From: a virus
Taxonomy: Duplodnaviria > Heunggongvirae > Uroviricota > Caudoviricetes
Direction: 5' to 3' (one strand)
IMG/VR virus record: IMGVR_UViG_3300049489_000540
DNA length: 27,024 nt
The notes below the pieces were generated by a model. It saw nothing but the letters and a program-made list of their open reading frames with translations. It ran no database searches and was not told the DNA's origin. A program made the position numbers and the translations under genes. Positions 2,611-24,215 of the stretch are shown here, one piece after another. Every line of letters begins with the position of its first letter. The first letter of the stretch is position 1.

Positions 2611-3057
2611 ATGAACGAGTACAAGACCGCCATCGCCCGCAACCGCCCTTCGGCTCCCGCCAAGTGGCTGCATGAGAACGGCAAGCTGATCGGTAAGATG
2701 CTCGACTACGGCTGTGGTCGTGGCAAGGACGCCGACACCTACGGCATGGACAAGTACGATCCGCACTACTTCCCCGAGCTTGCGGTGATGGGTCTGGAAA
2801 TTCTCTTCGACTCCTATGACACTATCATGTGCAACTTCGTGCTGAACGTGATCGACAGCGAAGTGATGCGTACCATGGCACTCATCTACATTCGCAATCT
2901 GCTCAAGGAAGGTGGCAAGGCGTACATTTCGGTTCGCAACGACAAGAGCAAGCTCAAGGGTCGCACCAAGACCGGCACATGGCAGGGTCTGATCACACTG
3001 GATCTGCCCGTCGTGAACAAGACTAGCAGCTACACCATGTATCTCTTGGAAAAGTGA
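2611..3057 (+). CDS. class I SAM-dependent methyltransferase (Dnd-associated-like)
   Basis: LDYGCGRGKD SAM motif, YDP.Y.P, NFVLNVI, N-terminal YKTAIARNRPSAP; leaderless start. Confidence 0.8.
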   Translation: MNEYKTAIARNRPSAPAKWLHENGKLIGKMLDYGCGRGKDADTYGMDKYDPHYFPELAVMGLEILFDSYDTIMCNFVLNVIDSEVMRTMALIYIRNLLKEGGKAYISVRNDKSKLKGRTKTGTWQGLITLDLPVVNKTSSYTMYLLEK

Positions 3058-5189: not shown

Positions 5190-5632
5190 TCAAATCTCAT
5201 ATCGTTGGGGTGACCGTATGAGATTATCCGCAAGGACGAGTCATTGACTTGACCGTAGCTCATGCAACTTTCTAGATAAGGTGCATGTAGAAGACATCCC
5301 TCCCTTTACAAATCTATACAGTGACTCAAGAGTGACCAGTAAGCCCTTATACGGCTGGGATTGATCCCCCCGAGAAAGAACTGGTATCAAACCATATCGT
5401 TAGTGTCAATAGTTTAGCACGCTCCCCTTTAAAGGGAGAAGAACCGGAGCATAACCGGTACGCTCGCAAATACCGATGAATACTGTTGCAACGGTCGGTG
5501 GTTCCTAAGTCTGGTCACTCTTGAGTCACTGTACAGCATGGCAAGCAGTCCCATGGTGGGAACAGACCCCTGGTGAGGCATCGAGCATACCGTTCCAGAC
5601 CGGCACTTGCTCTGCCCACCAGGGGGTTGCTT
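5190..5632 (+). ncRNA. candidate structured ncRNA (about 440 nt)
   Basis: No credible ORF; perfect 23-bp inverted repeat 5317-5339/5511-5533; hairpins 5193-5225, 5227-5236 (GCAA loop), 5422-5438, 5567-5625; GNRA loops and G-U pairs favour + strand. Confidence 0.5.
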
Positions 5633-5659
5633 TTTTCCAAAGGCTGATAGAATCCAATT

Positions 5660-6448
5660 ATGCGCGTGGTAAGCCTCTTCGACGGTATCGCTTGTGGGCG
5701 TCTTGCTCTCCAGCGGCTCAACATTCCCGTCACCAGCTACAAGGCATCTGAAATCGAAAAGCATGCGATCACGGTTGCTCGTAGCAACTTTCCCGACATT
5801 GAGCATGTCGGTGATGTGACGCAGCTTTATGTCGGTGAAGGTGAATGCGATCTGCTGATGGCTGGCAGCCCATGCCAAGGATTTAGCTGCTCAGGCAAGC
5901 GGCTGAATTTCGAAGATCCTCGCTCCAAGCTCTTCTGGGAATTCGTGCGTATTCTCAAGGAATCCAAGCCTCGCTATTTTTTCCTTGAGAATAATCGGAT
6001 GAAGCCGATCTGGCAAGATATCATCAGTGAAGCCGTTGGCTGCAAGCCGCTGCACATCGACGCTGGCACTATTTCGGCACAGCATCGTGAGCGGCTGTAC
6101 TGGACCAATATTCCTGGTGCTTGTGTTCCCGAGCCGAAGCCGAAGTTTCTGTCGGAAATCATCGGTGAATACGACAAGAAGATTTGGATCTATCCCCGTG
6201 GTCATACCGATAAGGGTGTGTACGATTACGAGGACAAGTGCCCGACCATCACCATTTCGTCATGGGAAGGAAATTTCTTCTACCTTCGCAACGGTGAGAA
6301 GATTCGCTTCACGCCAGAGCAAGCCGAAGAAATTCAAGGTCTGCCCATCGGCTACACCGCAATGGTTCCCAAGACGGTGCGCTTCAAGAAGGTCGGTAAT
6401 GGCTGGTCGATGCCCGTGATTGAGCATCTGTTCAGCGGCTTGAAGTAG
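5660..6448 (+). CDS. DNA (cytosine-5)-methyltransferase
   Basis: Motifs I (SLFDGIACG), IV (GSPCQGFS), VI (ENN), VIII (HRERLYW), X (VGNGWS); leaderless start. Confidence 0.95.
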   Translation: MRVVSLFDGIACGRLALQRLNIPVTSYKASEIEKHAITVARSNFPDIEHVGDVTQLYVGEGECDLLMAGSPCQGFSCSGKRLNFEDPRSKLFWEFVRILKESKPRYFFLENNRMKPIWQDIISEAVGCKPLHIDAGTISAQHRERLYWTNIPGACVPEPKPKFLSEIIGEYDKKIWIYPRGHTDKGVYDYEDKCPTITISSWEGNFFYLRNGEKIRFTPEQAEEIQGLPIGYTAMVPKTVRFKKVGNGWSMPVIEHLFSGLK

Positions 6449-9645: not shown

Positions 9646-10077
9646 CTAATCGGCTTGGTGGAAATCCCAGCTATTCGTGTTGTGATTCCATTCCCATATC
9701 ACTCCACGGAATTGAAACCGTAATGTGCCTTCTTCCTCGCTGCGTATCATCAGGCGAATCAATTCTTCGGATTCGTTCGAGGGAACATCGAGGTTGTCAT
9801 CGTCATCAATCTCTTTGTTCAGCATCCTGGTCCATTGACGGTAGATTGCTTCTTGCATGTTCTTCTGATGCTGCAATTCCTCTTCCGCTTTTGTCTTGAC
9901 AACAATGTACTCTTTCAACTCTGCCAGGCGGCAGAAAGCGGCTTCCTGTAACTGACCAGGGAACTGATCATTGTCGATGATGAAATCCAATGAATTGACC
10001 ATGTTTTCCAGAACCTCCGTTGGGAGATTATGGAACTCCATATGCTCGATAGCATTAAGCAAATGCTTTTCGGTCAT
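9646..10077 (-). CDS. acidic helical hypothetical protein
   Basis: 143 aa ORF in AT-rich block. Confidence 0.75.
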   Translation of the reverse strand: MTEKHLLNAIEHMEFHNLPTEVLENMVNSLDFIIDNDQFPGQLQEAAFCRLAELKEYIVVKTKAEEELQHQKNMQEAIYRQWTRMLNKEIDDDDNLDVPSNESEELIRLMIRSEEEGTLRFQFRGVIWEWNHNTNSWDFHQAD

Positions 10078-10494: not shown

Positions 10495-10656
10495 TTATGA
10501 CCAGAACGCATCCCAAAGAGCCTGAGCTTCCTGCTGACTTATATCTAATATTTTCGCAAGTTGCAGAGAGTTATCACATCGGTCAATAGTACCAGCGACT
10601 TTATAATAATCAAGTCGGAGTTTTTCGCAGAGTGCGATAAATGGATCTTGACCCAT
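10495..10656 (-). CDS. 53-aa hypothetical protein (not in ORF track)
   Basis: TTGCGC-15-TATAAT-6-ATG; MGQDPFIALCEKLRLDYYKVAGTIDRCDNSLQLAKILDISQQEAQALWDAFWS. Confidence 0.75.
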   Translation of the reverse strand: MGQDPFIALCEKLRLDYYKVAGTIDRCDNSLQLAKILDISQQEAQALWDAFWS

Positions 10657-12904: not shown

Positions 12905-13687
12905 ATGCTTGATTTCAAAAATATTATTAAGTACAAAACCTACATCAACCGTATTGGAAACAGAACCATATTCAATGATCAATCCCAAGGTGTCTTGGTC
13001 AAAAACATTATTACATTTTCAGATGATCAACTGATTGACATACAAAAGAGTTGGGACGAAACCGAAAACTTCAACCTGGCAGCAGCAAGTCATAACAAGG
13101 GGCTGCGAGAGCAATCTATCAAGCAAATCGAAGAGTTTTTCAGTGATTTAGGCATGCCGACCTGGGCAAAGAATAATGCTGGAACGGTCATTGGCATGCA
13201 TACCGAATTCAAGACCATGATGAAGCAACTGGACATTATGGGCGGCAATGGTGAATGTCCAAAGCGACCAATGGTTCATTCCGTCTTTTCACTTGGAGAA
13301 CATATCAAGCCGCTTGTCAAGACCTCGACGCTACTCGATTTCGTCAATGAGGTTAGACCACTGATTGCTGAACAAGAACGCAAGAAGCAAGAACTTGAAG
13401 ATGCGAAGATTGCAGATCGACAAGTCATGGCAGCCGCTATTCTGTCGCACAGCAAGGATCGAAACGCGATCGAGAAGTCTCGAAGGGATTGGATCAAAGA
13501 GAATGTTCCAAATGGTAAGATCGTCAAGATTGTCGATTGTAACTATTGCGACGAATGGCGCATTGGCTCATTCAAATGCTCATGTGGTCGAACTTACATG
13601 AACTTCAAAGTGGTCGGAGAACCAGGCAATTGGGAAATCAAAATGTGGGGCGAGCCAGATCCGATTATGAATGTGAAGATCATTTAG
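12905..13687 (+). CDS. hypothetical protein, AT-rich, C-terminal Cys cluster
   Basis: 260 aa; promoter at 12855 and GAGG SD; CNYC...CSCG. Confidence 0.85.
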   Translation: MLDFKNIIKYKTYINRIGNRTIFNDQSQGVLVKNIITFSDDQLIDIQKSWDETENFNLAAASHNKGLREQSIKQIEEFFSDLGMPTWAKNNAGTVIGMHTEFKTMMKQLDIMGGNGECPKRPMVHSVFSLGEHIKPLVKTSTLLDFVNEVRPLIAEQERKKQELEDAKIADRQVMAAAILSHSKDRNAIEKSRRDWIKENVPNGKIVKIVDCNYCDEWRIGSFKCSCGRTYMNFKVVGEPGNWEIKMWGEPDPIMNVKII

Positions 13688-13857
13688 CCTTGCGGCGTTT
13701 GGGCATCGTCTTTCACTTGCTTGGCGGTTACCCATCCTCGGCACCATTCAAGCTGCTCGGTCGTGCCTTTCTTGTAGGGACATGCGATCAATGGCATGCC
13801 CGCTTCACATGCATCAAATCCTTGATCAAAAAATTGTGAGTGTTTAGGGAAAGTCAT
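13684..13857 (-). CDS. ribosome modulation factor (Rmf)/CrpP-fold-like protein (not in ORF track)
   Basis: 57 aa MTFPKHSQFFDQGFDACEAGMPLIACPYKKGTTEQLEWCRGWVTAKQVKDDAQTPQG; G-x-x-A-x-x-x-G-x5-CPY-x(7-9)-W-x-x-GW pattern of Rmf; extended -10 TGaTATAAT-6nt-ATG. Confidence 0.7.
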   Translation of the reverse strand: MTFPKHSQFFDQGFDACEAGMPLIACPYKKGTTEQLEWCRGWVTAKQVKDDAQTPQG

Positions 13858-13873
13858 AGGTCTATTATATCAT

Positions 13874-14359
13874 AAAACGACTGCACCCTGGTCGCAAGCG
13901 CCAGGGTTCTCCTACTAGCATAGGATTAGCCGGGACTGCTAGATCCCGTTCAGAGGCTGAATCGTAAACGATCTGCCTCCTAGTCGTTCGCCCCGCTGGG
14001 TTTAGGTCTTTATGCCGGTCGCCACGGCACAGCGGGACTCATCGGTTTCCACACTCATTCCCCAGCCAAGGGGCGATCTTGCTTCCTCCTGTTTTGGCTT
14101 CTTATACCCTTCACCCGTTTCCCCTATTCTTCATCACCTTCCGGCTGCTAGGCAAGTCCATCGGGTTCAGAGAATTCTGTGGGTACTCGGGGGTGGTTTC
14201 GGCTTGGTGCCACCAAGCCCTCGTCAGTAAGAATCGTGCTGCCGTTTTATGCCCCTGCTGCGGAGCTTCCCTTGCGGGCGGTGGCAGTAACCGTTTTGAT
14301 TTTCAAGAAGCCGATCAGCGACCCAGGATCTCCCTTGTTTGACCGCTTACCAGCTTCGT
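13874..14359 (-). ncRNA. candidate large structured ncRNA (about 485 nt)
   Basis: Own promoter TTGACA(14387)-15-TAAGAT with no ATG at expected start; no minus-strand ORF; many stems with GNRA loops; terminal hairpin 13885-13907 and T-run. Confidence 0.65.
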
Positions 14360-14388
14360 AGGTTTATCTTAGCAGCTTTTTTAGAATG

Positions 14389-14643
14389 TCAAGAGGCTTT
14401 CTTCACCTTCTCGATGCCCAGCAGCTTGCGTTGAGCCGGATTCGGTAACTTGCCCATGAACATGCGCTTGAGTTGTTCTGTGGTCATGAGTGTCGCATCA
14501 GCGAGCCGCCAGATACGACAGTTCGGGCAAGGAATCCTGCGCCATGAACTTGGATGGTTGGCGTATAGCGAGCCAATCTTTTTGCAATCATCAGGATGCC
14601 AGATCACTCCACCACCATCACACCGACTGCATTCTTTGCTCAC
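14389..14643 (-). CDS. hypothetical protein with CxxC pairs (start GTG, VSKECSRC)
   Basis: GTGA overlap; CSRC and CPNC; TGA inside -35 at 14387. Confidence 0.75.
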   Translation of the reverse strand: MSKECSRCDGGGVIWHPDDCKKIGSLYANHPSSWRRIPCPNCRIWRLADATLMTTEQLKRMFMGKLPNPAQRKLLGIEKVKKAS

Positions 14644-14861
14644 GCGGGCACCGCGAAAGCCTTGCTTTCCTTGTAGCTGACCGTGCCGTTGTCGGTGTTG
14701 AAGCTCATCTTGCGGAAGGTCATGCCGTTGCACTTGACCACGGACGGCAGAGCCTTGTACTTGGCGAAGTCCAGATCATGCACTTCCGTCTGGAGCCACA
14801 CGACACCATCGTAGGTGCCGTAGTTGGTGACGGGAATGGCGTCGAGTGCGGTGGCTTGCAT
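14640..14861 (-). CDS. hypothetical protein
   Basis: Leaderless promoter at 14889. Confidence 0.85.
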   Translation of the reverse strand: MQATALDAIPVTNYGTYDGVVWLQTEVHDLDFAKYKALPSVVKCNGMTFRKMSFNTDNGTVSYKESKAFAVPA

Positions 14862-21703: not shown

Positions 21704-22030
21704 TCAAGAACCAAGTAGCTTGTCCAGTTCCTCTTTCAGTTTCTTGCGTCTCTCCGTGTCGTATGCCTTCTCTTGAAACTGGTTACAGATGGAATCATTC
21801 ATGGAAGGACCGACATAGCGACCGCTCTTCTGGTGAACTTCTCGGGGGCACAGACTAGAACACATCCACTTGTCACATGCACCACATGTGGCAGGCTTGT
21901 GTATAGCATTCTTCAACTCATTGATCTTTTGCTGTTTAGCAACAGCATTGCCGATATTCGCTGCCCAATCGAAAATCTCTCTACCGTCACTTGAAATGTC
22001 TTGCGGAATGGGCGGAATGTTATTCGCCAT
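21704..22030 (-). CDS. hypothetical protein with Cys cluster
   Basis: CGACDKWMC..LCP...C; TGA in next -35. Confidence 0.8.
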   Translation of the reverse strand: MANNIPPIPQDISSDGREIFDWAANIGNAVAKQQKINELKNAIHKPATCGACDKWMCSSLCPREVHQKSGRYVGPSMNDSICNQFQEKAYDTERRKKLKEELDKLLGS

Positions 22031-22235
22031 TCTTTTCCTTGATGAAGAACGAAACCCGCTTCGCTTCCGCCATGGTCAGACAGTCATGCACCTTGGTCAG
22101 ATCCATACCCGAACGCTTCTTGTAGTCGTTGCCACCGTCCACAGCAGAACGATTCTCGCAACCACACTGGACGAAATCGTGCGTGTGCTTGGAATGGAGA
22201 ATGTCACCACAGATGAGGCAGACGGCGAGGTTCAT
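22020..22235 (-). CDS. small zinc-binding phage protein
   Basis: CLICGDILHSKHTHDFVQCGC...VDGG pattern common among phage hypotheticals; leaderless promoter at 22264. Confidence 0.8.
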   Translation of the reverse strand: MNLAVCLICGDILHSKHTHDFVQCGCENRSAVDGGNDYKKRSGMDLTKVHDCLTMAEAKRVSFFIKEKNGE

Positions 22236-23735: not shown

Positions 23736-24215
23736 ATGAACCACATGAGCGCCAACGAACTCCGCACCATCATCAGCACCACGCTCGTCATCAACGGCAT
23801 GAGCCATGATGCGCTCAAGCAGATGGTGTTCGATCTGCTCGCCAGCAATCCCAAGCTGATCACCAAGACGGTGAACGGCGTCAAGGCTGCCGAGGCTGCT
23901 GCCGAGGCTGCCAAGACCTTCAAGGTCGTGCTGATCAAGCCCGGTATCAACAAGATCAATTTCATCAAGCTCGCCCGTTCGCTCCATTGCATGGGGCTGG
24001 CGGAAGCCAAGGATTGGTCCGAGGGCACCACCAACCAGCCGAGCGGCAAGCCCTTCGGTGTCATGGGTTCGGGTCTGAGCGAAGCGGCTGCCAATCAACT
24101 GATGGAACGGTGCAGCAAGGAGTGCAACGACGGAAGCGCCTTCAAGGTCATTTGGGATGACTACCCGTACACGGCTGTCACCTACCCGCGCTTCGCTGGC
24201 TACGGCGGCAACTAG
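23736..24215 (+). CDS. ribosomal protein bL12 (L7/L12) C-terminal-domain-containing protein
   Basis: AAEAAAEAAKTFKVVLIKPGINKINFIKLARSLHCMGLAEAKDWSEG...GLSEAAANQL aligns by eye with bL12 [43 protein letters not shown]...GVSKDDAEAL; leaderless. Confidence 0.75.
   Translation: MNHMSANELRTIISTTLVINGMSHDALKQMVFDLLASNPKLITKTVNGVKAAEAAAEAAKTFKVVLIKPGINKINFIKLARSLHCMGLAEAKDWSEGTTNQPSGKPFGVMGSGLSEAAANQLMERCSKECNDGSAFKVIWDDYPYTAVTYPRFAGYGGN

Follow-up and report, generated by a model that had tools for sequence, protein, structure and literature searches.

Rmf of Gammaproteobacteria (PF04957, NF011162; PDB 2JRM, 4V8G, 6H4N, 9IOT) is a protein of 55–57 aa, encoded by a chromosomal stationary-phase gene, that forms a two-helix hairpin with the conserved core G-[FY]-x-A-x-x-G ... 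CPY ... W-x-x-GW. On the ribosome, its helix 1 inserts between the 16S helices h28 and h37/h40, the conserved residues Arg3, Lys5, Arg8, Arg11 and Arg15 form hydrogen bonds to the 16S phosphate backbone, its N-terminal tail intertwines with S7, and Arg37 contacts S1 (Beckert et al. 2018, bioRxiv 10.1101/382572). Binding of Rmf is incompatible with the SD/anti-SD duplex, and the pocket is conserved as far as T. thermophilus, whose ribosomes E. coli Rmf binds as well (bioRxiv 10.1101/382572). Beyond Rmf itself, the broad Rmf/CrpP family (NF041886) and the phage proteins of Rmf fold (NF041887, BFVD) are small, neutral to acidic and carried on mobile elements, and the ICE-associated CrpP family (NF033696) belongs to the same superfamily and has the same size. 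A literature search returned no paper on phage-encoded Rmf-like proteins, nor any that connects Rmf with the translation of leaderless mRNAs in phages.

The phage gene described here encodes a protein that resembles Rmf in size, in its core motif and in a predicted two-helix hairpin. In contrast to Rmf, the gene is phage-borne and coupled to its own promoter, and its product, which is 32% identical to Rmf over 34 residues, falls below all curated Rmf thresholds and lacks most of the basic residues through which Rmf contacts the ribosome.

A 57-residue Rmf-like protein encoded in a phage window

We analysed a 27,024-nt stretch of DNA from a large, uncultivated Caudoviricetes virus (IMG/VR record IMGVR_UViG_3300049489_000540), referred to as the window, that contains a short ORF which an initial annotation, made from the sequence alone, had described as Rmf-like. 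The gene, its start codon and its convergent neighbour lie as follows.

13684..13857, minus strand: Rmf-like coding sequence, 57 aa; a divergent Rmf/CrpP-fold protein of a subfamily with N-terminal FPK[HR][ST] and C-terminal PQG
13855..13857, minus strand: ATG of the Rmf-like gene, predicted at or a few nucleotides from the transcript 5′ end
12905..13687, plus strand: convergent 260-aa ORF with a Cys-rich, zinc-ribbon-like C-terminal tail; its stop codon and that of the Rmf-like gene overlap by 4 nt

The 57-aa ORF, the spelling of its motif and the TGnTATAAT-6-ATG start that the initial annotation had listed are all present at 13684..13857 on the minus strand, where the protein reads G13-FDACEAG, five residues, C26-P-Y, nine residues and W38-CRGW. 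The interval between CPY and WLGGW in E. coli Rmf, given there as seven residues, is actually eight, and the phage protein has one residue more than Rmf between CPY and W. An earlier start is impossible because an in-frame TGA lies 4 codons 5′ of the ATG, and the N-terminus M-x-F-P-K-[HR]-[ST] is kept across relatives, which fixes the start codon. Given its E-values against Pfam RMF and NF041886 and its close homologues (both detailed below), the ORF is far beyond chance and is a genuine phage gene. An overlapping plus-strand ORF (13546-13839) was without homology support and was discarded as spurious, and the convergent 260-aa ORF had no family match in PHROGs or Pfam.

Among the curated family models, only the broad Rmf/CrpP model NF041886 was passed (35.5 bits, E 5.5e-9, cutoff 28; the homologue P0001 scored 39 bits against the same model). 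Homology to Pfam RMF (PF04957) was found at E 1.3e-5, though with a score under the gathering threshold (25.6 versus 27.9 bits). The protein likewise scored below the cutoffs of the Rmf equivalog NF011162 (26.1 bits, cutoff 40), the phage Rmf-like equivalog NF041887 (31.4 bits, cutoff 40) and the CrpP family model NF033696 (26.1 bits, E 6.8e-6, cutoff 55), and CrpP membership was rejected on this last score. The initial annotation had cautioned that CrpP-like proteins share the fold, and this pattern of scores bears the caution out.

An exhaustive phmmer search yielded 71 representative relatives at E < 1e-3. Two close homologues, P0001 (84% identity, 57 aa, E 1e-27) and P0002 (74% identity, called as 78 aa, E 2e-24), are encoded on JGI metagenome contigs of 15.9 and 13.8 kb, respectively, and both were automatically named ‘ribosome modulation factor’ by JGI. 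Many of the 71 relatives are long, very acidic proteins with 2–5 tandem copies of the domain; P0006, P0015, P0016, P0058 and others, for instance, are 400–640 aa long with 2–5 tandem Rmf-like domains and net charges of -50 to -70, and Pfam detects no further domain in them. A Pfam scan of 31 such long tandem-domain relatives recovered RMF with single Lar and HHH co-domains only, and offered no functional lead. The query itself falls in a small clade of about nine sequences, separate from the other phage Rmf-fold proteins, marked by an N-terminal M-x-FPK[HR][ST] and, in most cases, a C-terminal PQG. All of its PHROG matches are annotated as ‘unknown function’, and its tblastn matches are hypothetical proteins of Rhizobium, Vibrio, Caulobacter and Delftia phages. 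A megablast comparison of the 6 kb around the gene with GenBank phages found no near-identical match.

A search for related loci found no relative of the gene in viral contigs or metagenome contigs and, among genome contigs, one distant match only, on the chromosome of Chromobacterium sp. CV08. At that locus (5482-6390, plus strand), the Rmf-like domain lies inside a 302-aa acidic ORF, flanked on one side by what we take, by eye, to be a RecT-type recombinase and on the other by a presumed SMC/AAA-like ATPase. The locus looks like a prophage, and it shows the Rmf fold in use in non-ribosomal contexts.

A predicted Rmf fold with few of the Rmf rRNA-binding residues

AlphaFold2, supplied with a 29-sequence alignment, modelled the protein as a two-helix hairpin (helices 8-18 and 33-53; pLDDT 79). 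A lack of structural similarity to Rmf would have counted against the initial annotation, but Rmf structures ranked first in both searches of the PDB with this model. The top three Foldseek matches were Rmf entries (2jrm, 9iot and 6h4n; TM 0.66-0.74, probability 0.91-0.99), with E-values that are poor, as expected at 57 residues, and a Foldseek-independent search placed RMF of 4v8g at the top with a Z of 6.0 over 51 aligned residues, a score barely above those of unrelated helical hairpins. Furthermore, dozens of phage proteins among the BFVD predicted viral structures matched the model at a probability of 1.00 and TM 0.7-0.9, from phages of Caulobacter, Rhizobium, Burkholderia, Delftia, Serratia, Pseudomonas, Xanthomonas and others. 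The structural core (G-x-x-A-x-x-G, CPY, W-x-x-GW and two antiparallel helices) is kept and, as modelled, the fold of the 57-aa phage protein is the fold of Rmf.

The ribosome-contacting residues were compared by aligning the phage protein with the E. coli Rmf sequence of the K-12 record. One of the five rRNA-contacting basic residues is kept (K5); R3, R8, R11 and R15 correspond to F, a gap, Q and Q, respectively, and the counterparts of R37 and R45 are Gln and Val. The phage protein has a net charge of -1 and a pI of 5.6, versus +7 and 10.9 for E. coli Rmf. When 28 single-domain relatives were aligned, one (P0065, net charge +7) was basic in the manner of Rmf and carried these residues, and most were neutral to strongly acidic. 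The sole Rmf-like determinant left in the subfamily of the query is a Lys-[Arg/His] pair in the N-terminal tail, at the position of Rmf K5/R6. Because the curated Rmf thresholds were failed, a single basic residue of the five is kept and the net charge is -1, the comparison indicates that the phage protein is not an Rmf orthologue.

Promoter geometry and a predicted leaderless start

The promoter element assigned to the Rmf-like gene is the following.

13864..13872, minus strand: extended -10 TGATATAAT (TGnTATAAT), exactly 6 nt before the Rmf-like ATG

On the coding strand, the sequence 5′ of the start codon reads TGA-TATAAT-AGACCT-ATG. Inspection of the upstream sequence found no SD-like purine run ahead of the ATG, and no match to a -35/TTGACT box was found upstream of the -10. 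In its geometry, the leaderless start put forward in the initial annotation is therefore borne out (TGATATAAT-AGACCT-ATG, with no SD), and 32 promoters of the window are built alike. Specifically, the pattern TATAAT-N6-ATG, with at most one mismatch, has 11 occurrences in the window versus an expected 2.7, with 0 of 100 shuffles giving as many, and 32 promoter-like sites have an ATG 6-7 nt past the -10 (21 at 6 nt and 11 at 7 nt). Nearly all of these sites have a TG extended -10, and most follow the consensus TTGACT-15 nt (TTTCCAAA..CTGA)-TAGAAT-ACAAAC-ATG, as at 14861, 15943, 20463 and 23736; by the standard of sigma-70, a 15-nt promoter spacer is short. Like other window promoters, that of the Rmf-like gene combines an extended -10 with a 6-nt spacing, and the gene is probably transcribed from this element into an mRNA with no leader or almost none.

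About 10 further promoters of the same type in the window have leaders of 19-29 nt that carry an AAGGA/AGGAG SD at the right distance from the ATG. Read from its promoters, the window is made up of an array of mini-genes that have their own promoters and, since about 10 of these genes have SD leaders, the phage would need SD-led initiation too, which argues against a blanket anti-SD block. A classical Rmf mechanism is accordingly unlikely for the phage protein on three grounds, namely its lost basic residues, its charge of -1 and the SD-needing genes of the phage. The translation modulator that the initial annotation had proposed, if taken to work at the anti-SD in the manner of Rmf, thus fits poorly with the absence of four of the five basic residues, the net charge of -1 versus +7, the failed Rmf thresholds and the SD-led phage genes. 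Binding to the ribosome through a different surface is conceivable, although nothing in the sequence speaks for it.

The promoter variant TGATATAAT, followed after 5-6 nt by an ATG, is also seen at two other minus-strand genes, 10495-10656 and 9646-10077, and the first of them also carries, 15 nt upstream, a weak TTGCGC box. Genes with this variant may form a separate promoter or timing class; neither of the two proteins had a family match.

PHROGs and Pfam searches of more than 40 window ORFs returned almost nothing, the exceptions being a C5 methylase, a weak methyltransferase, a DUF7695 protein and a bL12 homologue. The last is encoded by a 159-aa gene (23736-24215, plus strand) with the consensus promoter and a predicted leaderless ATG, and is a divergent homologue comprising hinge and C-terminal domain (PF00542, 28.3 bits, gathering score 25.9; residues 32-126 match T. 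maritima L7/L12, 1dd3, at E 9e-7). Mizuno et al. 2019 (PMC6375957) describe genes for ribosomal proteins from viral genomes and name bL12 repeatedly. The remaining three are also predicted to be leaderless: a C-5 cytosine DNA methylase at 5660-6448 (plus strand; PF00145, E 2e-34, N-terminal part only), a weak SAM-methyltransferase-like ORF at 2611-3057 (plus strand), and a 71-aa DUF7695 gene at 22020-22235 (minus strand; PF24749, E 7.5e-15).

A putative structured RNA gene directly upstream

The sequence on the other side of the Rmf-like promoter contains a candidate RNA gene with the following features.

13874..14359, minus strand: putative structured RNA gene, ORF-free and promoter-driven, directly upstream of the Rmf-like gene
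14366..14392, minus strand: promoter of the RNA gene, TTGACA-15 nt-TAAGAT, called from sequence
13883..13901, minus strand: terminator-like hairpin at the RNA gene 3′ end, abutting the Rmf-like promoter

The terminator hairpin is followed by a weak T tract (AGTCGTTTTA) and lies about 15 nt from the -10 box of the Rmf-like gene, on the same strand. Single-sequence folding of the region 13874-14359 gave z = -1.9. Three AGGAG(G) motifs occur in the RNA (at about 14085-14091, 13975-13985 and 13905-13915), against about 0.5 expected by chance, and no start codon follows them. Rfam and tRNA scans of the window returned nothing.

The gene call of P0002 provides a view of the same region in a relative. 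It includes a 21-residue N-terminal ‘extension’ (MPVGETPSFGWAQSFSDIIDT), and in other reading frames the DNA that precedes the Rmf-like gene in the window would encode MLVGEP... and ...QSFYDIID; the extension is therefore best read as read-through of homologous upstream DNA. Within it, DIID corresponds to GATATAATAGAC, that is, to the -10 box, which in that relative stands 7 nt from the ATG. Judged from this one mis-extended protein call, the -10 box appears to be conserved in a relative with 74% protein identity, and the RNA 3′ end (GCTAGTAGGAGAACCC, giving MLVGEP / MPVGET) would lie directly upstream of the Rmf-like gene there too. By the same call, the pairing of RNA and Rmf-like gene appears to be conserved at least among close relatives.

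Discussion

We consider it fairly probable that the gene encodes a divergent member of the Rmf/CrpP superfamily that serves as a small binding module and is made from a leaderless transcript. Its own extended -10 would give rise to a leaderless or nearly leaderless mRNA, as is predicted for most mini-genes of this phage. Since the arginine ladder and the net positive charge are lost, the protein would most likely neither clamp the 16S rRNA backbone nor bring about hibernation. Instead, it may act by binding a partner through the parts that are conserved in its subfamily only, namely Asp15, the FPK[HR][ST] tail at the N-terminus and the C-terminal helix that ends in PQG, and this partner could be a host or a phage protein, possibly one associated with the ribosome. 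Several considerations weigh on the other side. The Rmf pocket is lined by the basic tails of S7 and S21 and could receive an acidic or neutral ligand, and the Lys-[Arg/His] pair is kept in the very tail that intertwines with S7 in Rmf. A role related to translation or RNA has some contextual support from the bL12 homologue in the window and from the position of the gene behind the RNA gene, and the term binding module, with no partner named, is vague.

A different reading, which we regard as unlikely, holds that the phage protein occupies the Rmf site of the 30S subunit, close to the anti-SD, and that the resulting block of SD-led initiation gives the leaderless mRNAs of the phage an advantage. 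It draws on Rmf being the best match in both structure and sequence, on the incompatibility of Rmf binding with the SD/anti-SD duplex, and on the conserved ribosomal pocket, in which E. coli Rmf binds T. thermophilus ribosomes (bioRxiv 10.1101/382572). The predicted leaderless starts at 32 window promoters point in the same direction, as do the Lys-[Arg/His] pair kept in the N-terminal tail and the bL12 homologue, taken as a sign that the phage meddles with ribosomes. However, the protein has one of the five rRNA-contacting basic residues and a net charge of -1, fails all Rmf-specific thresholds, and is encoded by a phage with about 10 SD-led genes in the window. Moreover, selectivity for leaderless mRNAs would not be expected, because Rmf drives 70S dimerisation, and the 70S ribosomes used by leaderless mRNAs would thereby be lost as well.

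It is quite improbable, in our estimate, that the protein is instead the partner of the upstream RNA, as a component of an RNP or as a regulator, or that read-through of the terminator makes the RNA a long 5′ leader of the gene, with a regulatory role. The two elements lie on the same strand within about 15 nt of each other, and the weak T tract makes read-through plausible; the RNA 3′ end and the -10 box also seem to be immediately upstream in the P0002 relative. The sole characterised member of the fold is, in addition, an RNA binder (bioRxiv 10.1101/382572). However, a protein with a net charge of -1 and a lost arginine ladder is unlike an RNA-binding protein, adjacency in close relatives may reflect recent common ancestry only, and other family members occur in unrelated contexts, such as the putative Chromobacterium prophage, where the neighbouring ORF appears, by eye, to be RecT-like.

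The Rmf-fold protein, the upstream RNA with its three AGGAG motifs, the bL12 homologue and the leaderless design might also be combined into one translation-takeover system, a speculative reading to which we give little credence. In such a system the protein, alone or with the RNA, would occupy or remodel the 30S platform or the anti-SD region by protein contacts, not by an rRNA clamp, and ribosomes would be shifted towards the leaderless mRNAs of the phage. Finally, a function of CrpP type, that is, of the small ICE/plasmid-style protein for which phosphorylation of ciprofloxacin was once proposed (an enzymatic claim reportedly contested by Zubyk and Wright in 2021), is extremely improbable, as the NF033696 match is weak and far under the cutoff and the gene lies in a mini-gene array of a phage, not on an ICE.

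The gene is one more member of a catalogued, widespread and uncharacterised group of small Rmf/CrpP-fold proteins of phages, plasmids and ICEs, and we know of no family member other than Rmf itself whose function is established. Particular to this copy, and in contrast to other phage Rmf-fold proteins, is its place behind a large putative structured RNA gene, a position that appears to be conserved in one relative, together with the predicted leaderless design found throughout the phage. Outside Gammaproteobacteria the family has lost the rRNA-binding residues, and the protein described here is one more example of why the automatic label ‘ribosome modulation factor’ is unsafe for small phage proteins. 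Its apparently conserved association with a large, novel putative RNA gene makes this copy a sensible choice for testing. Should the protein turn out to redirect ribosomes, it would become the first Rmf-type factor of a phage for which a role has been demonstrated, and would represent a mechanism that favours leaderless phage mRNAs.
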